A stretch of DNA of 64,000 bases from positions 512,001-576,000 of the forward strand of contig JBMNFY010000017.1 in NCBI GenBank assembly GCA_050949565.1. The letters run 5' to 3'. The stretch comes from Kiritimatiellia bacterium (GTDB taxonomy: Bacteria; Verrucomicrobiota; Kiritimatiellia; RFP12; UBA1067). Positions 35,695-57,404 of this stretch are shown piece after piece. Position 1 is the stretch's first letter. Every line of letters begins with the position of its first letter. The position numbers and the translations under genes are program-made. The notes under the pieces are model-generated. The model did no database searches. It saw only the letters and a program-made list of their open reading frames with translations, and was not told the origin of the DNA.

Positions 35695-35761
35695 AACCGC
35701 CAAGGTGCCAAGAACACCAAGGAAATCATGATTTTCATGAAGTTTCATGTGCTTCATGGTT
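35695..35761. repeat. Hybrid repeat junction: triple CCAAG-type left end joined to a reverse triple-CATG end
   Basis: AACCGCCAAGGTGCCAAGAACACCAAG (35695-35721), then TTTCATGAAGTTTCATGTGCTTCATGGTT (35733-35761, one mismatch to consensus). Confidence 0.85.
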
Positions 35762-42880: not shown

Positions 42881-43048
42881 GATGAATTGCGTAAGGCGTA
42901 CGATACGATGCACGCGCACATTTCTTGGAGTATGGCGGACGCGCTGACGGCGTTTGATGCCGCGACCGCCGCTGCGACTCGGAAAGGTCGTGCGCCCAGC
43001 GATCCGGTGCATGACGCGTTCGCGCAGATCACGGCCCGCTTCACGTGA
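42881..43048 (+). pseudogene. Internally deleted 3' relic of a GntR gene paralogous to 56646-57404
   Basis: Reads DELRKAYDTMH|AHISWSMADALTAFDAATAAATRKGRAPSDPVHDAFAQITARFT*, matching two separated parts of the intact gene. Confidence 0.9.
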
Positions 43049-43055
43049 TGGCTCA

Positions 43056-43509
43056 AACCATGAAACACATGAAACTTCATGAAAGGTTGAGGGCATGAAA
43101 GAAAAGATCACGGCGGTCTATGAAGAGGAGTGCTATCAGATACGCGGGGCCTTGTATGACGTGTACACGGTGCTCGGAACTGGTTTCTCGGAAGAGGTCT
43201 ACCAAGAGGCGCTGGAGAAAGAATTTGCCATGCGCCATATCCCTTTTGTGTCACAGCAAGTCCTGCGATTTCATACAAAGGGGAATGGCTTGCAAAGACC
43301 TACAAAGCAGATCTGGTCTGTTACGACAAAATCATTCTCGAATTGAAAGCTGTCAAAGCCCTGCTTTCCGAGCACGAGGCGCAACTCATCAATTACCTTA
43401 AAGCAACCGGAATGCGTCTGGGCTTTCTCGTCAACTTTTGTCATTTTCCCAAGGCAGAGATACGCACATATGTAAACTAATTTCATGAAGTTTCATGTGT
43501 TTCATGGTT
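43056..43509 (+). mobile_element. GxxExxY element copy 1 bounded by 29-bp terminal inverted repeats
   Basis: AACCATGAAACACATGAAACTTCATGAAA at 43056-43084 and its exact reverse complement at 43481-43509. Confidence 0.75.
43095..43480 (+). pseudogene. GxxExxY PD-(D/E)XK protein, frameshifted
   Basis: GTGFSEEVY motif. One G is missing at about 43268 (CTGCGATTT vs CTGCGGATTT in the intact copy). Confidence 0.9.
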
Positions 43510-43613
43510 TAAACTCCTTTCCCTGTTGACAGCCGCCAGCCGAACGTGATATAAAACCGGTATACAGCTTTTATTAACCTGTGTTTTAACCGGTGTGGCA
43601 AGAGGAGTTAGGT
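43508..43613 (+). promoter_or_regulatory. Promoter/operator/RBS of the LamG gene
   Basis: TTGACA at 43526, TGATATAAA, AAAACCGGTATAC at 43553-43565, GAGGAG RBS. Confidence 0.7.
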
Positions 43614-46600
43614 ATGCATGCTCAAGGACGGAGTTCACGGTTTGCTGTTTCAATCAAGACGGGGGCGGTCATTGGGCTGTTCCTCCTTATGGGCGCACAT
43701 GGTGCACGTGCCGCCGACGCAGTGCTCAGTTTCAGTGCCAGTGGCCAGCGGGTTGTCACCACCGGCCAGATCACGGCCAATGACTTCACAGCGGAGGCGT
43801 GGTTCAAGCTATCCAGCTACATCTCTGAAAACCAGATCTTTTCGCAATACCGCGACGATGCCGGTCGCTTTATTGTCGGTATCAAGGACAAGGTCGCGGG
43901 CATGTTCATCGGCGGCACCTGGATGACGGGCAGCGGTACGATCCCGCTCAATACTTGGACTCACATTGCTGTCTCGCGTAGCAACACGACCTGGACCATC
44001 TACATCAACGGCCAGTTCTATACGAACGGCGTCCATAACGCGAATCCTCTCGCCAACACAACGTTTGCAATCGGCGCGATCGGCACCACGGCACCGGGCT
44101 TCCGGGGAGAGATCAGCGATGTGCGTGCCTGGAATACGGTCCGCTCTCAAGCGCAGATCGCTGGCGGGTTGGACACGCGCCTTACCGGCACTGAGGCAGG
44201 ACTTGCGCACTACTGGCCGCTGAATGAGGGCTTAGGTAGTACGGTCGCGGATCTTGCTGCTGGAGCCTCAGGAACGCTCGGTGCCGGTGTTGCTTGGGCC
44301 GTTAGTACCGATCTGCCGTTCTCGACGGCGCGACAGGACGGCACCGTTGCCTACTGGCGGCTGGACGCAGATGCGTCCGGTACGTTGGACACGCGCGACT
44401 TTATCGGCAACGCCCGCTTGTCGAGCGGTCTCGATATAACCGCGCACACAACAACCATGCAGGCCAGCCGCAATCAGGCGTTCAGCGGCCAACCGCCGAA
44501 CAGCACGCTGCCCCTGCCGAACGGTAACTCCGGTTCGGCGTACGCGCAGGCCAACGGTGCCTGTCTGCGCGTCACCGATCTGGGACGCCACTTGGAAATC
44601 ACCAACAGCTTTACGGTCGAGGGTTGGATCGCTCCGCACCGGCAAGATTATGATACAGACATCCAGTACATCGCTAATACGCGTGTTTTCACCAAGGGAT
44701 GGGCCTTCGCGCTCAAACGCATGTCGGACGGCACGCGCAGGCTCGTCATCTACGCTGGGGATGACAGTGGCGTTCAAGTTGGCGACGCATCGCTCTCCGG
44801 CGACCTGGCGGCGTGGGCGGACACCTGGCGGCATGTGGCGCTGGTCTATGATGCAAATGCGGGCGAACAGGCGCAGGGTGCCTGGCGGTGCTATCTGGAT
44901 GGCGAGCTGCAGGGCGCGGCCACCAATCAACAGGCGCGTGTCGGCACCACTGCCTCCGAGTATTTCCATTTGGCCGGCCGCATTGGCGGCCACCCCGCTA
45001 CTTTCTGCGGTTATCTGGATTGTTGGCGTGTGAGCCAGGCCGCGCTCGTACCCGAGCAGTTTCTCAACGCGACCGACGGCGCGGTCGCCGCGACCGACGT
45101 GCTGGCGCTATGGCCGCTGAATTCAACGGACGGGGTCTACTTCGATGGTTCGGACGTGACCGGCAACTGGTCGTTCGGCACACCGTTGACAGCCTTGCAC
45201 AAGGCCACAGGCAGCACATCGCAGGCGGTAACCCCGCTTCCCAATCCGGATGCGTCGGCCGCATTTCGCGGTGATCCCGCCGTCAATACTGGCAGTCTGG
45301 TGTTCAACACACCGGCGGCAGCAGCCAAGCGCGCGTATCTCGCCTCCGACAATTATACCGTGCGCGACACGCTCTGTTACACCAACAGCTTTACACTGGA
45401 GGGGTGGTTCTATCGGACACTGAATCCGGGCGGCTGGCAACTTCTCTTTGCGACGGGCGGGGCACCGGTGTTCAGCAATCCGATCGTCGGCCTGTCACTC
45501 AATTTCACCTACCGGACCAACGGTTACGTGCTCTTCGCGGGTGGTGGGTGGCCGGGGACGCTCGTGAGCGATGTGTCGTTCGGCACTGGGTCGATTGATA
45601 ACGAACTGAACGTCTGGCGGCATGTTGCGTTGGTCTACGACGTGACCGTCGGCAAGGGGACCTGGTCGCTCTATGTGGACGGCACGCTCAAAGGCAGCAT
45701 CGAAAACAACACAGTGCCGACCCGTTCCGTACCGGCTTACTTCTATATCGGCGGGCGCCCGTGGTCGGACAACGCGTTCAACGGCGCGATCGATACCGTG
45801 CGCCTGACGCGCGGCGTGCTCGCGCCGTCGCAGTTCCTCAATGCTGCAGGCGCACCGCCGCCCGCTCCGCCCGCGCCCGCGACGGTCGCCTATTGGAAGC
45901 TGGATGACGACGGCGCCGCGCTCGATGCCTCCAGCCAGGTGGAGCCGCGCTACGGCTTCGCGCTGGATGCGTACGCGCCTCGCCGCTTCGGCGGCGCAGT
46001 TCAAGCGCTTCGTCCCGGTGCCGGACACGACGCCCGGCTTCATCGGCGAACCCGCGCGCCAACGCCGGTTCGGCGGCTTTTGACAGTGCCAATTATTTGC
46101 GTGTGCAGAGTCTTGGCATCCGAGTCGAAATGGATTGCGCTTTTACGGTCGAGGGCTGGATGTTCTGGAGCAACCGGGCCGCCCGTGCGGTGCAAACGAT
46201 CGCGGGAACGCGCTTCGACGCGACGTACGGCTGGAGGCTGTCGCTTGAAAAGAACGGCGACGCGGCGGCGTTCCGGCTCTTCTGTCGTACGCCGAATCAG
46301 ACGCCGCTGATTGATGCCACTTTCGCTTTTGATGCCGCTGGACTAGCCGACGCGTGGCACCATCTGGCGCTGACCTTTACGCCCCGCCGCAATGATACCG
46401 GCACATGGGAACTCTTCGTTGACGGGGTCTCGGTCGGTACGCTTGAAAACATCTTCTATCCCGCCGTGCCTCACCGGAGCCACTGGTTTGCGCTGGGTGG
46501 GCAGGCCGATGGCACCGATTCGTCGTTCGACGGACTGCTCGACTGCTGGCGCGTCTCGGAGGGTGCGCGGACGCCCGACACCTTCCTGTATTTGGGGTAT

Positions 46601-46630
46601 GACAAAGGGACACTGCTGAAGATCCGCTGA
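43614..46630 (+). pseudogene. Multi-LamG (concanavalin-like) secreted protein with two frameshifts (~45980 and ~46050); ends GTLLKIR
   Basis: Four LamG-like repeats (FTxEGW, WRHVALVYD, LYVDG, FxGxLDxxR). The fourth repeat passes through three successive frames. May be a sequencing error in an intact gene. Confidence 0.75.
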
Positions 46631-46636
46631 TGAGGG

Positions 46637-47063
46637 AACCATGAAACACATGAAACTTCATGAAAGTTTTTTTGAGGGCATTGCTCGGGTTTGTTTAACC
46701 ACAGAGAACACAGAGAGCACAGAGTTTTTTGAGGGGGCGGGGCTGGCCGCAAATTTATTGCGACCACCTAGTGGTCGCAATGATGAGTGTAAAAGCACTG
46801 CTCGGTTGTTTCACGCGAAGGCGCGAAGACGCGAAGGTTGGAGGGCGAGTGTCCCCACGAGCCGCCTTCCGCTGAGCGGAAGGATGGGAGGGACGAGCGT
46901 CGCTCGTCCGCGGGCAAGCAGACGCTTGCCCCTCCCTGCGCTTCGCAAGCCAGATGACACGAGATGGAGGGCGGCATCTGGGTGGCGCACAAAATTGAAT
47001 TGGGGTGCGGGCTCCGCTAAAAAGGAGTTCTTGATTTCATGAAGTTTCATGTGTTTCATGGTT
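46637..47063. mobile_element. Non-coding 427-bp element with the GxxExxY-type terminal inverted repeats (copy A)
   Basis: Forward motif 46637-46665 and reverse motif 47035-47063; interior is a mosaic of other repeats. Confidence 0.8.
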
Positions 47064-47120
47064 AAAAAAGTCCTCCCTCTAATCGGGATTGGAACGAAAA
47101 ATGTGACGAAAGGATATGTG

Positions 47121-48272
47121 ATGAAAAAAACACTTGTTGTTTCGACTGTTAGCCTCTTGTTTGCTGCGGCTGCTTTCTGCCAGCCGCCTAAGGCCCCGCC
47201 ACCGGAGCATGCCGGTCCGCCGCTGCCGCGTCATGCAGTCACCAACCGCGCTTTCACTGGCATCTCCAGCCTGGCGGTCGCACCCAACGGTCGGCTCTGG
47301 GTAACCTGGTATGCCGGCCACACGCCGGGCGAGGACCGCAATAACTATGTGGTGCTCGCTACCAGCGGTGATGGTGGCGCGACTTGGAAGGAACTGCTCA
47401 CTGTGGACCCCGACGGCGGGGGGCAACGTCGCACCTTCGATCCCGAAGTGTGGATTGCGCCGGATGGTCGGCTACGCTGGATATGGAGCGACCGTACCAT
47501 GCCGCACAGCGGTGTGTCGTCCGACGCGATCTGGATGATCGTGCTCGACGATCCCGCGTCGGAAAGCACTGCATGGCACCCGCCGGTATATGTCACGCAG
47601 GGCGTGATGATGTGCAAGCCCATCGTGCTCTCTTCAGGCGAGTGGGCGCTGCCGGTCTGTACGTGGTATTCGGAGAACAGTTCGAAAATGGTGGTCTCCA
47701 CTGACAACGGCAAGACGTGGTCGGTGCGCGGCGGCGCGAACATGCCTAGGGAAGACCGCTGTTTTGACGAGCACATGTTTGTGGAACGCAAGGACGGCTC
47801 GATCTGGTGTCTGTCGCGCGCCAAATCCGGCATCCGCGAGGCGGTCTCGACCGACCGTGGCGCAACATGGTCGCCGCTGGAGCCGTCGCCGATCCAGCAC
47901 CCGTCGGCACGCTTCTTCATCACGCGGCTGCTCTCCGGCAACCTGCTGCTTGTGAAGCACGGTCCGATTGAAAGGAAGACCGGTCGTTCGCATCTCATGG
48001 CCTTTGTGTCGAAGGACGATGGCCGGAGATGGGAGGGCGGCCTGATGCTCGATGAGCGGAACGGTGTCTCCTATCCCGACGGCCAGCAGGCGGCGGACGG
48101 CACGATCTACATCACATACGATTTTGACCGTATCGGCAAACGCCATATCCTCTTCTCCACCTTCCGCGAGGAGGACGTGCTGGCCGGCAAGCCGGTTTCC
48201 GGCGCGGTACGTCTGCGCCAGATCGTGAGCGAGGGATCGGGTGGTGTCAAACGGTCTGAGGCCGCTAAATGA
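47121..48272 (+). CDS. BNR/Asp-box sialidase-family (GH33-like) protein
   Basis: Signal peptide; Asp boxes SGDGGATW, STDNGKTW, STDRGATW, SKDDGRRW; VSYPD. Confidence 0.87.
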   Translation: MKKTLVVSTVSLLFAAAAFCQPPKAPPPEHAGPPLPRHAVTNRAFTGISSLAVAPNGRLWVTWYAGHTPGEDRNNYVVLATSGDGGATWKELLTVDPDGGGQRRTFDPEVWIAPDGRLRWIWSDRTMPHSGVSSDAIWMIVLDDPASESTAWHPPVYVTQGVMMCKPIVLSSGEWALPVCTWYSENSSKMVVSTDNGKTWSVRGGANMPREDRCFDEHMFVERKDGSIWCLSRAKSGIREAVSTDRGATWSPLEPSPIQHPSARFFITRLLSGNLLLVKHGPIERKTGRSHLMAFVSKDDGRRWEGGLMLDERNGVSYPDGQQAADGTIYITYDFDRIGKRHILFSTFREEDVLAGKPVSGAVRLRQIVSEGSGGVKRSEAAK

Positions 48273-48699
48273 AACCATGAAACACATGAAACTTCATGAA
48301 AGTTTTTTTGAGGGCATTGCTCGGGTTTGTTTAACCACAGAGAACACAGAGAGCACAGAGTTTTTTGAGGGGGCGGGGCTGGCCGCAAATTTATTGCGAC
48401 CACCCAGTGGTCGCAATGATGAGTGTAAAAGCACTGCTCGGTTGTTTCACGCGAAGGCGCGAAGGCGCGAAGGTTGGAGGGCGAGTGTCCCCACGAGCCG
48501 CCTTCCGCTGCGCGGAAGGATGGGAGGGACGAGCGTCGCTCGTCCGCAGGCAAGCAGACGCTTGCCCCTCCCAGCGCTTCGCAAGCCAGATGACACGAGA
48601 TGGAGGGCGGCATCTGGGTGGCGCACAAAATTGAATTGGGGTGCGGGCTCCGCTAAAAAGGAGTTCTTGATTTCATGAAGTTTCATGTGTTTCATGGTT
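48273..48699. mobile_element. Non-coding 427-bp element (copy B)
   Basis: Direct repeat of copy A with about 5 substitutions seen by eye. Confidence 0.8.
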
Positions 48700-48710
48700 T
48701 AAGGAGAGGA

Positions 48711-50504
48711 ATGATGAGAGAGTTGATGATAGTCGCGACCGTAACGATCACACTGTGCGGGCTGGTACCGCTTCACGCGCGCGCTAACGCGCCGCTTGTC
48801 TCCTGCGCGTTGTTGAGCGGGCCGGGCGCGGCGCTTGAGAAGATCACCGGTGTGCATCCCGGCGTTATCGAAGAGGGGGCCACCGTGTTCACCGACCGCG
48901 CCTTCGTCTACCATCGGCCGCCCGCTGGCCTCAAGGGTATGCCTGCGTTGGTGGGATCGATCGATTGCGACGTGCCGGTCACCGTGTCCAAAGACGGCCT
49001 GCTCACCGTGCTCACGCCAGCACCGGACATCAAGGGCGCGTTCTGCTCAAATGCCCCCGAATTGGAAGCGCGCGGCTTCACATGGGTTCAGTCTCCGGCG
49101 CAGTTCCAATTGTTCGGAGAGAATCCTGTCGACACCGTGCGCATTTATCAGAAAGCCGTCACGCGCGGCGAGTCGTTCACCTTTAAGAAATGGGTCGTGC
49201 TGGCGGGTGTCGATTTCGCAGGCCAAGATTTCTTCACGCCGAACGCACGGGTGGCGCGTGTGGTCGAGGCGCTGAAGGCCGACACGACCCGTCTGGACGC
49301 AAAGCTAAACGCGCAGGACATTCTGGTCAACCGTCCCGACTATGTGGTGTTCATTCCCCGGCAGCCGCGCGACAAGACAAAGCGCGATCCCGCTCGGCCT
49401 GGCGACACCTACAACGACCACTTTCAGGTGATCGAGCACGAGGGCATGCTGTACGCCTTCTGGACGCAAGCCTCGCGCGAGGCGGATATTGACCAGCACA
49501 TCGCTTTCTCAAAAAGCGCGGACAAAGGCGAGAGCTGGAGCGAGCCCGTGGTTCTGGCCGGTTCGCCCAACAAGAAAAACCCGGCGCTGTTGGCGAGTTG
49601 GCAACAACCAATGATCAGCGCGTCGGGCCGTATCTACTGCCTGTGGAATCAACAAACCACCAGCCGCGGGCCGCACTGTGGCCAGATGTTCGGCGCGTAT
49701 TCTGATGACAAGGGAGACACATGGTCGGCACCGAAAATGATACCGCTGAAGCGCAGCATTCTGGATGATCCCGATCCATTGATACCACCGAGCTGGTGCA
49801 ACTGGCAGCGCCCGTTGCGTCTGGGCAAAGGGGGGCGTTACCTGGTGGGCGTCTCGCGGCACGGTAAACTGCCGGACGCCAAACGGGGCGGATGCTATAT
49901 TGAGTTCTTGCAGTTTGACAACATCGACGACAATCCCAAGGTCGAGGACATCCGGCTGAGCTGGTTTTCGAGCGACGAGAAGGTACTGCGCGTCAGCCAC
50001 GAAAAATTCGGCGATGCTGCAGAGGAGGTCGGTCTCGTTAAGCTGCCGGACGGTCGTCTTTTCGGCATCATGCGCACCGGCGCGGGGTACCCCTACTGGA
50101 CGCAGAGCCGTGATAACGGCGTGACCTGGACGCAGCCCCGGCCGCTCCTGGATCGCGACGGCGGCAAGCCCTATCTGCACCCGCGCTCGCCCTGTCCGAT
50201 CTACGACTGGAAGGGGTGCGAGGCCGCCAGCGGCTACTACTTTGCCCTTGTCCACAACACCTTCGACTTTGACGGCAAAAGCGAGTATCAGCATCGCGGC
50301 CCGCTCTATCTGATCGCGGGCCGGTTTAACCCAAACGCCGAGCAGCCGGTCGAGTTTGCGCCGCCGAAACTTTTCGCCGAGCGCAAGGGCGGCAACTCGT
50401 TCTACACGAGCTATACGATCATGGACGGCAAAGGCATCCTCTGGTTCCCCGACCACAAGTTTTATCTGCTCGGACGTGAGATCGGGGAGGAGTGGTTTAA
50501 GTAG
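48711..50504 (+). CDS. BNR/Asp-box sialidase-family protein with an extra N-terminal module
   Basis: Signal peptide; SADKGESWS, SDDKGDTWS, SRDNGVTWT. Confidence 0.82.
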   Translation: MMRELMIVATVTITLCGLVPLHARANAPLVSCALLSGPGAALEKITGVHPGVIEEGATVFTDRAFVYHRPPAGLKGMPALVGSIDCDVPVTVSKDGLLTVLTPAPDIKGAFCSNAPELEARGFTWVQSPAQFQLFGENPVDTVRIYQKAVTRGESFTFKKWVVLAGVDFAGQDFFTPNARVARVVEALKADTTRLDAKLNAQDILVNRPDYVVFIPRQPRDKTKRDPARPGDTYNDHFQVIEHEGMLYAFWTQASREADIDQHIAFSKSADKGESWSEPVVLAGSPNKKNPALLASWQQPMISASGRIYCLWNQQTTSRGPHCGQMFGAYSDDKGDTWSAPKMIPLKRSILDDPDPLIPPSWCNWQRPLRLGKGGRYLVGVSRHGKLPDAKRGGCYIEFLQFDNIDDNPKVEDIRLSWFSSDEKVLRVSHEKFGDAAEEVGLVKLPDGRLFGIMRTGAGYPYWTQSRDNGVTWTQPRPLLDRDGGKPYLHPRSPCPIYDWKGCEAASGYYFALVHNTFDFDGKSEYQHRGPLYLIAGRFNPNAEQPVEFAPPKLFAERKGGNSFYTSYTIMDGKGILWFPDHKFYLLGREIGEEWFK

Positions 50505-50537
50505 AGCTTAGAAAGGTGGACAGCGCGGTTGGAATGA

Positions 50538-50738
50538 GACCATGAAACACATGAAACTTCATGAAAGGTGGGGCATGGTTAGTGTATTGGTGCGTTAGTT
50601 CATCAGTGCATTAATTTGGTTCCATCGGAATCGGGATCGGGACCGAAATCGATAGAGAGTGAATAGTGGGGGGCTGTGCGGACACAAACCGCTAAAAAGG
50701 AGTTCTTGATTTCATGAAGTTTCATGTGTTTCATGGTT
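50538..50738. mobile_element. Non-coding 201-bp element with the same terminal inverted repeats
   Basis: Forward motif 50538-50566 and reverse motif 50710-50738. The right sub-terminus CCGCTAAAAAGGAGTTCTTGA is shared with the 427-bp copies. Confidence 0.8.
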
Positions 50739-50766
50739 TAGAACGGTATGAAAAAGGAGAGGAAAG

Positions 50767-52899
50767 ATGAGAGGGATGATGATAATCGCGGCCATAACGA
50801 TCATGCTGTGCGGGTTGGCACCGCTTCATGCACAGCCGCGCGATACGCCCTTGCCGGGACGCGGTGCCGCACTCTTCGTGCAAGGGATTTTTGAGCAGGA
50901 TACGTTTACCGAAGGTGCGCGACTCTTCCCGGACCGCACTTACACAGTGGCTGAAGCGCCCGCTTGGTTGCGCGGGTCGACCTTCCTGCGCGCAAGCATT
51001 GATGGCAACCTTACCGTGACGGTCAAGCAAGCCGGTGTGTTGACGGTGATTACGGCCGATCCCGCCGATCCGCTCGCCACGCATTCGCAATGCACGCGTC
51101 TGGAGGAACTGGGGTTTGTCTGGGTCAAGGCACCGGCGACCTTTCAGCTTTTCGGCAAAGCGGCTCACGACATCAGCCGCACTTATCAGAAACTGGTCGC
51201 GCAGGACGAAACGTTCAACTTTCCCAAGTGGACGGTGTTCGCCGGTTTCTCCGAGGTGACCGGGCCGCCGCTGCCGTTCGACCTTCTGCCAGAGCGCGGC
51301 GAGCGACTTTACAACGGCATCGAACTTTCAACCAACTGGCCGCCGCGCACCGTGAACACGACGAACTGGGCGCCGATGGCCGTGCCGTATCTGACCGCGC
51401 CGCCGGAGTTGATCCATATTGATGTGGGGCGGCAACTCTTTGTGGACGACTTCCTGATTGCGACCAGCACGTTGCAGCGCGTCTTCGGTATGCCTGAGAA
51501 GTACACCGGCAACCCGGTGCTGCGTCCAGAGACCGAACTGGAGTTGAACGGCATCCGGAACGCCGCAGCCGTGCCGAAGGGTGGCGGGCTCTGGTGGGAT
51601 CCCTACGAACGGCTGTTCAAGCTCTGGTATGAGGCGGGCTGGATCCACACCATTTGTTACGCCACCAGCACAAACGGTCTGCACTGGGAGCGGCCGAAGT
51701 TGGACGTGGTGCCGGACACCAATCAGGTGCTGCCGCCGGACTTGACACCAGACTCCTGGACCGTGGTGCCCGATTGGGAGGCGACCGATCCGCTGCAGCG
51801 CTATAAAATGTTTATGCGCGGGCCCGGCGGGACAATGCCCGGGGTGAGTATGACTTCGGCGGATGGCATTCACTGGGTGAATCGTGTAGTTACTGGCCAC
51901 ACCGGCGATCGTAGCACCATGTTCTATAATCCATTCCGGCGCAAATGGATCTACAGCCTGCGGAGCGGCTGGCGCGGACGGTCACGCGATTATAGGGAGA
52001 GCGACAACTTCCTGCGCGGTGCTTCTTGGAGCGCGGCGGATACCGTGCGTTGGTTGGCCGTGGATGAGAAGGACCCCAAGGATCCGAAAATCCAGCGGGT
52101 GCCGCAACTCTACAACTTTGACGCGGTAGCCTACGAGAGCATCATGCTGGGTGCATTTGAGATTCACCACGGACCGGAGAACGACGTCTGCATGAAAGTC
52201 GGTTTGCCGAAAATCACGGAGTTGAATTTCGCCTACAGCCGCGACGGGTTCCACTGGTCGCGGCCTGACCGCAGAGCGCACATCCGCGCGGAACGTTGGG
52301 GCAGCGGCAAATGGGATACCGGCTATGTGCAGTCGCTCGGCAATCTTTGCACGATTCAGGGCGACAAGCTCTGGTTCTATTACTCCGGATTTCAAGGCGA
52401 CACCAATCGCCTCAGCGGCGACTGGTTGCAGAACGGCATGTACGACAACGGTGCCATGGGCATCGCCTTCTTGCGGCGCGATGGCTTCGCGGCTATGCGG
52501 GCGGGAGACGGTGGTGGAGAACTCGTCACGCGGCCATTGCTCTTCAGCGGTGCGTGTGTGTTTGTGAATGTGGCGTGTCCACAAGGCGAGTTGCGCGTGG
52601 AGGTGCAGGATGTCGAAAGCGAGACGGCCATTCCGGGTTTTGCGCTGGCCGAGTGCCGCCCCGTCTCCGTCGACAGCACCCTGCACCGCATCACCTGGCA
52701 AGACGCCGACACCGTCAGGGCTTTGCGTGGCCGACCGGTCCGTTTCCGTTTCGCATTGTCCAACGGCGCGCTGTACGCTTTCTGGGTCAGTCGTGATGAA
52801 AGCGGTCGCAGCGACGGCTATGTAGCGGGCGGCGGACCGGGATACACCGGGCCGACTGACACGGTGGGGGCTGCCGCGTTGTTGCAAGATGAACCATGA
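50767..52899 (+). CDS. Secreted five-bladed beta-propeller glycoside hydrolase (GH32/43-like) with N-terminal module
   Basis: RQLFVDDFLI, GNPVL, FKLWY, YATSTNGLHW, SADGIHW, YSRDGFHW, LRRDGF. Stop codon lies inside the first repeat unit. Confidence 0.78.
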   Translation: MRGMMIIAAITIMLCGLAPLHAQPRDTPLPGRGAALFVQGIFEQDTFTEGARLFPDRTYTVAEAPAWLRGSTFLRASIDGNLTVTVKQAGVLTVITADPADPLATHSQCTRLEELGFVWVKAPATFQLFGKAAHDISRTYQKLVAQDETFNFPKWTVFAGFSEVTGPPLPFDLLPERGERLYNGIELSTNWPPRTVNTTNWAPMAVPYLTAPPELIHIDVGRQLFVDDFLIATSTLQRVFGMPEKYTGNPVLRPETELELNGIRNAAAVPKGGGLWWDPYERLFKLWYEAGWIHTICYATSTNGLHWERPKLDVVPDTNQVLPPDLTPDSWTVVPDWEATDPLQRYKMFMRGPGGTMPGVSMTSADGIHWVNRVVTGHTGDRSTMFYNPFRRKWIYSLRSGWRGRSRDYRESDNFLRGASWSAADTVRWLAVDEKDPKDPKIQRVPQLYNFDAVAYESIMLGAFEIHHGPENDVCMKVGLPKITELNFAYSRDGFHWSRPDRRAHIRAERWGSGKWDTGYVQSLGNLCTIQGDKLWFYYSGFQGDTNRLSGDWLQNGMYDNGAMGIAFLRRDGFAAMRAGDGGGELVTRPLLFSGACVFVNVACPQGELRVEVQDVESETAIPGFALAECRPVSVDSTLHRITWQDADTVRALRGRPVRFRFALSNGALYAFWVSRDESGRSDGYVAGGGPGYTGPTDTVGAAALLQDEP

Positions 52900-53112
52900 A
52901 ACACATGAAACTTCATGAAAAGGCGGGGTGTGGTTAGGGAACCATGAAACACATGAAACTTCATGAAAAGGCGGGGTGTGGTTAGGGAACCATGAAACAC
53001 ATGAAACTTCATGAAAAGGCGGGGTGTGGTTAGGGAACCATGAAACACATGAAACTTCATGAAAAGGCGGGGTGTGGTTAGGGAACCATGAAACACATGA
53101 AACTTCATGAAA
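52892..53112 (+). repeat. Tandem array: five 29-bp motifs separated by four identical 19-bp linkers (48-bp period)
   Basis: Motif starts at 52892, 52940, 52988, 53036 and 53084; linker AGGCGGGGTGTGGTTAGGG. Confidence 0.95.
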
Positions 53113-53122
53113 GGTGAGGGGT

Positions 53123-53509
53123 ATGAAAGAAAAGAGCGTGATGGTTTATGAAGAGGAGTGTTATCAAATACGCGGGGCCTTGTATGAGGTATATACGGTG
53201 CTCGGGACTGGTTTCTCGGAAGAGGTTTACCAAGAGGCACTGGAGAGAGAGTTTGCTGTGCGCCATATCCCGTTTGTATCACAGCAAGTCCTGCGGATTT
53301 CATACAAAGGAGAATGGCTCTCAAAGACCTACAAAGCAGATCTGGTCTGTTACGACAAAATCATTCTCGAATTGAAGGCTGTCAAAACCCTGCTTCCTGA
53401 GCACGAGGCGCAACTCCTCAATTACCTTAAAGCAACCGGAATGCGTCTAGGTTTTCTCGTCAACTTTTGTTGTTTTCCCAAGGCGGACATACGCACGTAT
53501 GTAAACTAA
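53123..53509 (+). CDS. GxxExxY family protein (PD-(D/E)XK nuclease-like), intact
   Basis: GTGFSEEVYQEAL, ADLV..KIILELKA, HEAQLLNYLKATG..GFLVNF. Reverse motif directly after the stop (53510-53538). Confidence 0.92.
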   Translation: MKEKSVMVYEEECYQIRGALYEVYTVLGTGFSEEVYQEALEREFAVRHIPFVSQQVLRISYKGEWLSKTYKADLVCYDKIILELKAVKTLLPEHEAQLLNYLKATGMRLGFLVNFCCFPKADIRTYVN

Positions 53510-53545
53510 TTTCATGAAGTTTCATGTGTTTCATGGTTGAAAAGT

Positions 53546-56550: not shown

Positions 56551-56645
56551 TGAAGCTTCATGTATGCCGTGACCAGCCTGCGCGCTCTGCTTGTCGCATG
56601 GTTGGGTTAGGTCTCTCCTAACCATGAAACACATGGTATGAGCTA
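56551..56645. repeat. Scar cluster: degenerate motif, 38-bp copy of the NRAMP gene 3' end, and a collapsed element footprint
   Basis: 56566-56603 matches 54755-54792 at 33/38 nt; 56620-56635 is a partial motif AACCATGAAACACATG. Confidence 0.8.
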
Positions 56646-57404
56646 TCACGTGAAGCGGGCCGTGATCTGCGCGAGCGCGTCATGTACCGGATCGCTGGGT
56701 GCGCGGCCGCTCCGAGTCGCGGCGGCGGTCGCGGCATCAAACGCCGTCAGCGCGTCCGCCATACTCCAAGAAATGTGCGCGTGCATCCAGCGAGCCGCAG
56801 CGCTCGGGTCGCCGCGCCGTATCGCACGCTCGACCTCGGCATGCTGACGCCACGCCCAGGCAACGTGGCGCAAGTCGCGCTTGTGGCTGTACTGGCCGAA
56901 GAAGAGATTACGCTGGTAGACGTTGGTTACGATCTTGATGGCCAAGTGGTTGCCGGCCGCTTTGAGCAACAGCAAATGGAACGAGAGGTCTGCCGTGAGA
57001 AATGTAACCAGCGGTCGGCCCTCCAGCAGCGGACGACGCCGCGTACGCAGACTGACAGCCATCGCATGCATCGTCTCGCACGCCTTGCGCAATTCATCGC
57101 GGTTGGCTTTGGTGAGGTTCCGCACCGCACGTTCCATGGCGAAGGTCTCAAGTGCCATCCGCACTTCAAAGGCATCGATGAGCTGACGCCGGTCCGGCCG
57201 CGCGACATACGTGCCGCTGGACGGGATCTGATAGAGCAGCCCCTCCTCCGTCAGCCGACGCACCGCCTCGCGCACCGGCGTACGGCTAATCCCGCACTCG
57301 GCAGCAATCGTCTGCTCGGAGAGCTTTTGCCCTGCCACCAGTTCGCCACTCACCAATTTCTTGCTGATGTGCCGATAGGCGACATCACTCAACGTTTCAC
57401 CCAC
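56646..57404 (-). CDS. GntR family transcriptional regulator (FadR/FCD subfamily)
   Basis: GQKLSEQTIA..GISRTPVREA HTH; VRMALE, DLSFH, HAEV..AI, MHAHI FCD motifs. Confidence 0.92.
   Translation of the reverse strand: MGETLSDVAYRHISKKLVSGELVAGQKLSEQTIAAECGISRTPVREAVRRLTEEGLLYQIPSSGTYVARPDRRQLIDAFEVRMALETFAMERAVRNLTKANRDELRKACETMHAMAVSLRTRRRPLLEGRPLVTFLTADLSFHLLLLKAAGNHLAIKIVTNVYQRNLFFGQYSHKRDLRHVAWAWRQHAEVERAIRRGDPSAAARWMHAHISWSMADALTAFDAATAAATRSGRAPSDPVHDALAQITARFT

Follow-up and report, generated by a model that had tools for sequence, protein, structure and literature searches.

The window that we have analysed is a stretch of 64,000 nucleotides from the genome of a Kiritimatiellia bacterium; it corresponds to positions C17:512001-576000 of the assembly which we call G000, and the relatives of this genome are numbered G001, G002 and so on. 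In this window a cluster of genes for carbohydrate-active enzymes (CAZymes) is punctuated by a short inverted repeat, and two pairs of this repeat enclose a gene of the GxxExxY family. The present work deals with the pairing of this gene and its repeats. The repeat is a 29-mer, AAC-CATGAAA-CA-CATGAAA-CTT-CATGAAA, which contains three CATGAAA heptamers after an initial AAC. Allowing up to three mismatches it is found 15 times in the window, and not once in any of 100 shuffled sequences. Thirteen of the copies are exact; those at 50538 and 35733 have one mismatch each. The copies form five inverted pairs, which we call E1 to E5. The 29-mer search found them in the same positions and strands which had been given in a first-pass annotation of the window.

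E5 (53084..53538, + strand, 455 bp) has a left arm in 53084-53112, an intact GxxExxY gene of 128 amino acids in 53123-53509 and a right arm in 53510-53538(-). E1 (43056..43509, +, 454 bp) is organized in the same way, with a left arm in 43056-43084(+), a GxxExxY gene in 43095-43486 and a right arm in 43481-43509(-). Compared with the intact copy in E5, its gene lacks a base after 43266; as a result of this single-base frameshift it is a pseudogene. The three other elements are gene-less. E2 (46637..47063, +, 427 bp) has perfect arms of 29 bp at 46637(+) and 47035(-). E3 (48273..48699, +, 427 bp), with arms at 48273(+) and 48671(-), is a second copy of E2: both are 98.8% identical, with 5 differences, and E3 is specific to G000. 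E4 (50538..50738, +, 201 bp), with arms at 50538(+) and 50710(-), has only its arms and its right 49 bp in common with E2 and E3. The first-pass annotation described two pairs which enclose a GxxExxY gene and three which enclose non-coding DNA: this is correct for E5 and for E2-E4, and has to be amended for the frameshifted gene of E1. The term non-coding is appropriate in that no Pfam family is found in the open reading frames (ORFs) of E2; we also rejected a coding role for the long ORF which runs through this element, given that its translation is arginine-rich and of low complexity. The term overlooks the fact that the interior of E2 and E3 is a mosaic, formed by a conserved linker, a triple-CACAGAG module, a triple-CGCGAAG module and GC-rich hairpins.

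E5 is preceded by four extra tandem units of 48 bp (52892..53083, +), in each of which a left arm is followed by a 19-nt spacer. The gene upstream has its stop codon within the first unit. Altogether five forward copies of the 29-mer with a 48-bp spacing (52892-53112) face the single reverse copy at 53510(-). All the copies listed in the first-pass annotation hold, and two features had been missed. One is a solo CATGAAA array with 1 mismatch in 35733-35761(-), placed head-to-head with a CGCCAAG-type array between two convergent ORFs. The other is a 19-bp remnant of an element in 56620..56638(+), in which the first 16 nt of the left arm are joined to the last 3 nt of the right arm; it is unique in the genome and reads as a deletion between CATG repeats. 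This remnant comes after an intact GntR gene, a duplicate of whose 3' end is found immediately before E1.

A LamG-domain gene, two BNR/sialidase genes and a beta-propeller-like ORF (50767-52899), for which no Pfam family was found, occupy the intervals between the elements; an Nramp gene comes after E5. Arrays are present at every gene boundary of this 10-kb stretch, as had already been noticed. Together, E2, sialidase 1, E3, sialidase 2 and E4 make up a 4.1-kb block (46624..50750, +) with a left arm at one end and a right arm at the other. Stop codons are very close to the motif: one TGA lies inside it (52897-52899), another one abuts it (48270-48272), and those at 46630 and 50504 are found 6 nt and 33 nt before it. 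At 47049 and 48675 the ORF finder places ATGs within the right arms, and these are unlikely to be the true starts; ribosome-binding sites and ATGs come after the arms. There is no target-site duplication at the flanks of the five elements, nor did any appear when the filled and the empty E1 site were compared, and no transposase or integrase domain was detected with Pfam among the ORFs of the element-bearing stretch. On the stop codons, the target-site duplications and the transposase or integrase domains the first-pass annotation had been accurate. The LamG gene (43593-46630) is read as two overlapping ORFs, 43593-46310 and 46097-46630, which indicates a frameshift or a sequencing error.

The protein encoded in 53123-53509 matches PF13366 (PDDEXK_3) with 133 bits (cut-off 22) and TIGR04256 with 132.7 bits (cut-off 35); PF13366 is the only family found in it. 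In a comparison of 37 sequences no change is seen in residues G30, E33, Y36, E83, K85, Q97 and Y101, and the conservation of D73 is at least 90%. We take the conserved residues to be catalytic from what is known of the PD-(D/E)XK fold; Q97 and Y101 occupy the position of the QxxxY motif of the family. The structure model has a pLDDT of 92.8. Its best Foldseek match is Cas4 SSO0001 (E = 6e-4, TM 0.58), followed by lambda exonuclease and RecE, and tRNA-splicing endonucleases appear among the weak structural matches. A search by sequence for solved structures gave nothing better than E = 0.05. The protein is predicted to be a stand-alone nuclease of the PD-(D/E)XK superfamily with a Cas4/RecB-like fold: the family scores, the active-site residues and the predicted fold all agree with the PD-(D/E)XK-like nature proposed at first. 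Six longer proteins of the family were also found; each of them is fused to a different housekeeping domain, and we consider them to be the result of gene-calling run-through. The family is large, with at least 6507 clusters at 90% identity, and it is present in 35 of the 41 relatives searched. A 2012 survey of the superfamily gives PF13366 as a family of unknown function with multiple transfers (PMC3424549).

There are six GxxExxY loci in G000. The copies in E1 and E5 are both bracketed by CATGAAA arms. Of the other four paralogues, three are flanked on either side by a heptamer array of their own, the two arrays being inverted with respect to each other: CGCAGAG in C15, CACAGAA/CACGGAA in C17:1382795 and CACGAAT in C17:1746684. 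The remaining paralogue, in C7, has CGCAAAG arrays on both sides, both in the same direction. The closest relative of the E5 protein, with 70% identity, belongs to a Lentisphaerota genome and has the same arm, with CACG instead of CATG in all units. Two of the paralogues (C17:1382795-1383163 and C17:1746684-1747016) adjoin genes which resemble type I restriction-modification.

We then have the evidence from other Bacteria, a sample of 80 GxxExxY loci from many phyla with one genome per species. A flanking inverted repeat with a score of at least 14 is found in 55/80 loci, versus 3/80 in a control in which the downstream flank was reversed and not complemented. When the flanks of different loci are paired the value is 12/80, because the motif itself is common to the loci. 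A triple heptamer is present at 250 bp or less from the gene in 69/80 loci and on both sides of it in 50/80. The density of triple heptamers is 3.70 per kb near the gene versus 0.23 per kb beyond 600 bp. The consensus across loci is AAC-CACGAAA-nn-CACGAAA-nn-CACGAAA upstream, and its complement downstream. No other gene accompanies the arrays to a similar extent: GxxExxY is found in 80/80 loci and the next unrelated family in 5. The families which appear in 40, 9 and 7 loci correspond to overlaps with the GxxExxY gene in other frames, as judged by coordinates. Gene and arrays travel together across phyla, and each paralogue in G000 has its own heptamer: the CATGAAA motif is a local dialect of a pan-bacterial gene-array pairing. 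The association of motif and gene which the first-pass annotation had suspected is thus far above chance, both in G000 and across phyla. Four of the 80 loci have an HsdM-type methylase as a neighbour, with Pfam confirmation in one of them (L072).

The heptamers also follow the phylogeny of the protein. The tree has 85 rows; 62 rows with a label were used in the heptamer test, and 23 rows without a clear type were excluded. The heptamer type requires 21 changes on this tree, versus a mean of 29.3 (minimum 25) when shuffled. The phyla are intermixed on the same tree, with 38 changes versus 51.3. We also looked for residues which covary with the heptamer, on a tree from which three long-branch paralogues of G000 had been dropped. 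The best column is the arginine in the IRGA stretch of E5, which is found in 14/18 loci of CACGGAA type and in 2/41 of A type; there are only 2 independent contrasts on supported branches, so this test has no power. The change from CACG to CATG or CACA is a CpG transition, and for this reason the dialects may partly reflect mutation pressure and not a changed specificity.

The genome of G000 has 4.66 Mb in 21 contigs; a rough gene call gives 2646 genes with 78% of coding sequence. It contains 154 copies of the 29-mer, of which 135 are exact by count of the listing. A de novo scan found 603 exact modules with a heptamer repeated three times, which belong to about 70 core types, versus 0 in the shuffled genome. 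Most of the cores are variants of C-R-Y-N-R-A-R. Few modules are found inside the roughly called genes: 59/603 overall and 5/145 for CATGAAA. The CATGAAA modules fill 62 of the ~2646 spacers of the genome, and five consecutive spacers are filled in the CAZyme locus described here. Most solo CATGAAA arrays have opposite them, after ~10 nt, an array of another dialect to which they are not complementary (CGCCAAG, CACGGAA or CGCAAAG). Only one other CATGAAA pair within 3 kb is found in G000, and it encloses a DEAD-box helicase gene. Many copies form tandem arrays of identical units, with periods from 48 to 729 bp; in the tandem unit a forward CATGAAA array is joined through a conserved linker to a reverse CGCAGAG array. 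Long tandem arrays, with up to 21 units of 106-729 bp, are found in C17:47-1739, C17:453410-455358, C17:778610-781498, C17:1433625-1434501 and other positions; one of the tandem arrays runs into a contig end. An interpretation as CRISPR arrays was rejected, given that the putative spacers are identical from unit to unit. A conserved linker (a T-run, GAGGGCAT and GCTCGG) is found after many arrays, for example in 46666-46696 of the window and in many sites of the genome. Its GAGGGCAT part matches the ribosome-binding site and the start of the GxxExxY gene in E1, so that such linkers may be remnants of the 5' ends of deleted genes.

As regards mobility and REARRANGEMENT, the motif is patchy among the 41 relatives searched. 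The first-pass annotation had proposed to map it in the genome and in its relatives: abundance in G000 is evident from its 154 copies, and among the relatives G002 has 31, G004 has 30 and the others have 0-3. In G018, which belongs to another genus, an inverted pair of the motif surrounds a GxxExxY gene with 84% identity in an unrelated site. E1 is missing, with exact boundaries, from the intact spacer between the GntR remnant and the LamG gene in G001, G002 and G004. In G003 the same spacer (L015, C397 841-1253) has an insert of ~590 bp with two small ORFs, the second one a HicA toxin (27 bits, at the cut-off); this spacer is therefore a landing place for unrelated small cassettes. Another spacer, between sialidase 2 and LamG, has in G001 (L017, C253) a pair of small antisense ORFs, by eye a possible toxin-antitoxin, and it is filled differently in other genomes.

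The sialidase genes have a more complex history. In G002, which has 96% identity to G000, an E4-like element takes the position of E3 and sialidase 1 is longer by ~170 aa. This C-terminal extension of ~170 aa is present in G001-G004 and absent from sialidase 1 of G000 (47049-48272), whose TGA abuts the left arm of E3. The left arm meets the truncated ORF exactly, and the right 49 bp of E3 and the downstream sequence are common to G002; our reading of this sequence comparison is that E3 is a one-ended replacement whose left junction is end-specific. Only 14 nt separate the stop codon of the LamG gene from the start of the following gene in G001 and G003; the 4.1-kb block with two sialidases occupies this place in G000 and G002. 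In G001, G003 and G004 the two sialidase genes are found upstream instead, after a LamG/PATR gene of 1746 aa and a gene of 396 aa, both missing from G000. The LamG gene of G000 is a hybrid of two paralogues of the relatives, with a breakpoint at ~44340. In G004 the old arrangement of the sialidases already has arrays at these boundaries, and sialidase 2 is found, with its ribosome-binding site, directly behind a solo left arm. The E5 site has in G005 an aldolase gene and a degenerate solo right arm.

We also compared 32 motif sites from G002 and G004. In our reading about 18 of them are conserved in G000, and other modules have taken the place of 7 rows (6 sites). No clean empty site for a solo array was found among the 32: the sites which differ are filled by other modules. 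Units appear, vanish and are replaced between close relatives, and the breakpoints are found exactly at the outer AAC edge. Gene-carrying and gene-less forms with the same ends exist side by side, in agreement with the autonomous and non-autonomous forms which had been suggested. Congeners differ both in gene order and in occupancy, with breakpoints at the outer arm ends; given this variation and an association with the gene far above chance, neither of the two outcomes which the first-pass annotation had named as contrary to its proposal, a fixed order and occupancy or a lack of association with the gene, has been found.

The elements are found between co-directional genes and extend from the stop codon to the next ribosome-binding site, so one may think of an RNA-level element: hairpins formed by the arms in operon transcripts would be signals for processing, stabilisation or insulation, and the GxxExxY protein would be either a passenger or an RNA endonuclease. 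The fold of E4 as RNA, with a terminal stem of 30 bp, -93.3 kcal/mol and z = -9.55, would suit such a role, as would the tRNA-splicing endonucleases among the weak structural matches. The pattern of conservation points in a different direction. Between E1 and E5 0/58 arm positions differ, versus 40/397 in the interior (P = 0.002). The two arms were also compared in 54 elements from many phyla: they disagree in 80/1008 columns of the cores (7.9%) and in 73/207 columns of the inter-core spacers (35.3%, Fisher P ~8e-22), a contrast to be read with the proviso that cores were defined by their pattern on either arm, which introduces some bias toward core agreement. Pairing as such is not kept if the spacers disagree in 35% of the columns. 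The 328 arm mismatches do not show a bias for G:U pairs in the sense strand either: 67 would be compatible with G:U in the sense RNA and 91 in the antisense RNA, and the other 170 on neither strand. In addition most solo arrays are found opposite a dialect with which they cannot pair. The core and spacer contrast, the G:U counts and the non-complementary doublets indicate that the heptamers themselves are kept, and not the pairing of the arms. As the heptamer cores are conserved between arms and the spacers are not, recognition of DNA by a protein is favoured over an RNA hairpin; three sites with a period of 9-10 bp would fit a protein which reads one face of duplex DNA. No Rfam family was found at E values up to 0.1, 0/80 loci match a 23S rRNA gene, and some insertions truncate or replace coding sequence. 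We consider an RNA-level role to be quite unlikely. Scans for promoters and terminators remained at chance level.

An integron-like system was the proposal of the first-pass annotation: the arrays would be recombination sites which bound single-gene cassettes, and the GxxExxY protein would assemble and reshuffle them. The arrays at every gene boundary, the different gene order of the congeners with breakpoints at array ends, the 4.1-kb block of two genes, which begins with a left arm and ends with a right one, and, in G004, both the aldolase gene between arms and the sialidase 2 which starts right after a solo left arm are all as expected from it. However, the window contains no tyrosine recombinase: the closest one is ~175 kb away (C17:750768; PF00589 is found 7 times in the genome). 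The arrays are inverted pairs around separate small insertions, and not a single attC-like site for each cassette. Furthermore the same genes are adjacent without any array in G001 and G003, which means that they are not cassettes defined by the motif. The breakpoint of LamG at 44340 is within a coding region, and 5.8 kb of G004 are missing: both fit homologous recombination between paralogues. Finally arrays are found in 62 spacers throughout the genome, beside unrelated housekeeping genes such as that of the DEAD-box helicase. Membership in the integrons does not stand, and we give this explanation very little credence. A different possibility, which we find rather unlikely, is that these are miniature inverted-repeat elements which depend for their movement on an unrelated transposase encoded elsewhere and acting in trans, with GxxExxY as cargo, for example an addiction or defence gene. 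Terminal inverted repeats, exact ends, gene-less copies and insertion polymorphism are typical of such elements; we know of no nuclease of the PD-(D/E)XK fold which catalyses strand transfer; G002 and G004 retain arrays with no detectable cognate gene; and small toxin-antitoxin genes enter the same spacers, as HicA does in the E1 spacer of G003. Yet no other gene family recurs beside GxxExxY in the 80 loci, target-site duplications are absent, the dialect tracks the GxxExxY tree with a dialect of its own for each paralogue, and the only other CATGAAA pair within 3 kb encloses a helicase gene and not a transposase. As for a defence gene, PADLOC gave only a marginal match (E = 0.007).

We lean towards a nuclease-plus-cognate-repeat system, similar to that of the repetitive extragenic palindromic (REP) sequences and their REP-associated tyrosine transposases (RAYT), without being itself a member of it. 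The evidence points to a mobile repeat system of a kind apparently not described before, and not to an integron; searching the literature by family names and repeat features, with supplementary files excluded, we found no published description of a GxxExxY gene paired with repeats. The complete form would be a GxxExxY nuclease gene of 128 aa between two inverted arrays, each with AAC and three heptamers at a 9-10-bp spacing. The gene-less pairs (E2-E4), the solo arrays, the head-to-head doublets of different dialects and the tandem arrays, nearly all of them intergenic, would be its derivatives. The nuclease would recognise the heptamer arrays as duplex DNA and would nick or cut at or near their outer edge. 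Host repair, either by copying from another array-bearing locus, by end joining or by unequal exchange, might then insert, delete, amplify or swap DNA between or beside the arrays. The run of filled spacers in the CAZyme locus would be due to local spread and repeat-mediated rearrangement, and not to an integron. In the region before E1, 143 bp (42907-43049) duplicate the 3' end of an intact GntR/FCD regulator gene (minus strand, ~56.6-57.4 kb; 56639-57000), and GCTCA plus the start of a left arm come after both copies of this 3' end. This duplication either is later than an element insertion, or the element was copied together with the duplicated DNA.

Several observations do not favour this nuclease-plus-repeat interpretation. 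Binding or cutting of the arrays by the GxxExxY protein is putative, and the joining step is inferred entirely, because a PD-(D/E)XK nuclease alone cannot join DNA and there is no target-site duplication. G018 has the cognate gene and only its own two arms, and G002 and G004 have ~30 CATGAAA arrays each and no E5-like gene found with the E5 query, in assemblies which are 56% and 78% complete. In G000 itself some abundant modules have no cognate GxxExxY gene: GAAACCC (53), TGAAACC (40) and CACAGAG (53). The copy number in G000 is inflated by the tandem arrays, and the same arrays may be unassembled in the fragmented relatives. The definition of the cores has the bias mentioned above, and ordinary slippage between the CATG repeats of a palindrome can account for the 19-bp remnant. 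In G004 the place of the gene at the E5 site is taken by an HpcH/HpaI aldolase gene, which is fused to the final 24 nt of GxxExxY and has a left arm before it and a right arm after it. No trustworthy case of an empty site, a circle junction or an inversion was found in Logan metagenome contigs (two DNA and two RNA runs), in which contigs break at the 29-bp arms, as short-read assemblies would be expected to do; the joints listed there fall in highly repeated interior modules.

Blocks of host genes bounded by arms may be actively moved, and the candidates for gene capture are the 4.1-kb two-sialidase block, which occupies the place of the 14-nt spacer of G001 and G003, the aldolase between arrays in G004 and the sialidase 2 behind a solo left array. 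In the strongest form of this idea, which we regard as rather unlikely, nuclease and arrays would break and rejoin DNA in such a way that host genes are captured between a left and a right array and moved elsewhere as array-bounded cassettes. If this were true, polysaccharide-utilisation loci would be reshuffled in a manner not known before, by a nuclease family which is found in many bacterial phyla. The pairing of gene and arrays has consequences of its own, provided it holds. The GxxExxY family would gain a concrete substrate which can be tested. Hundreds of intergenic repeats per genome in several phyla, including the 603 modules found here, would have an explanation, and a second partnership of an enzyme with a repeat, unrelated to REP/RAYT, would be added to the first. 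The window is unusually informative in this respect: it contains one intact and one decayed copy, three copies without a gene, a tandem amplification and a remnant, and the relatives show filled and empty states and a rearranged block.

When we compare this system with those already known, some features are found in common with each of them. Integrons share with it the short repeated sites at the boundaries of co-directional genes and an order which varies between strains. In our case order and occupancy vary with endpoints at the arm edges; one breakpoint is inside a gene, and the genomes compared are fragmented assemblies. The differences are that there is neither an IntI with attI beside the array nor an attC-type site, which is an imperfect palindrome present in one orientation at the 3' end of each cassette: here the sites are inverted pairs. 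From its model the protein would share with Cas4, RecB, lambda exonuclease and RecE the PD-(D/E)XK core, with the helix glutamate, D and ExK. Unlike them it has only 128 aa, no Fe-S cluster cysteines or partner domains, and no context of CRISPR or recombination operons. The Rpn/YhgA-like proteins are also small stand-alone PD-(D/E)XK nucleases; they were once annotated as transposases and have been proposed to promote recombination. GxxExxY belongs to a different Pfam family, and we know of no cognate flanking repeat family described for the Rpn/YhgA-like nucleases.

Among the repeats, the Correia/NEMIS sequences of Neisseria are miniature inverted-repeat elements found between operon genes. 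As in our case they are gene-less units of 100-450 bp with perfect terminal inverted repeats, placed between co-directional genes, which may form long RNA stems and which vary between strains. They differ from the elements described here, which have no target-site duplication, which have a gene-carrying form whose gene is not a known transposase, and in which solo arms and mixed doublets are common. Transposons with terminal inverted repeats have in common the inverted ends and an insertion polymorphism with exact ends; here, in contrast, there is no transposase of a known family.

The REPtrons, in which RAYT (TnpA-REP) genes are found with REP sequences or bacterial interspersed mosaic elements (BIME), are described in three papers (PMC3333891, PMC8266576, PMC3733652). 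They share with our system a small nuclease-type gene between inverted copies of a short repeat, gene-less intergenic copies in numbers from tens to hundreds, BIME-like mosaics with alternating orientation or type and conserved linkers, tandem arrays, and a type of repeat which is specific for each paralogue. The enzyme is different: here it is a PD-(D/E)XK nuclease (PF13366) and not a Y1 HUH transposase of the IS200/IS605 type. The repeat is also different: its unit consists of AAC and three direct heptamers without self-complementarity, whereas a REP is an imperfect palindrome or hairpin with a GTAG or CGTC tag. Conservation of the sequence would point here to the recognition of a duplex and not of single-strand hairpins. 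The nearest described design appears to be that of the TIRtrons of Di Nocera et al., in which genes of RAYT-like tyrosine transposases lie between terminal inverted repeats that are also dispersed as families (PMC3733652). The elements which we have described differ from them by the family of the enzyme, and by an inverted repeat whose internal design of three repeats is conserved across phyla.

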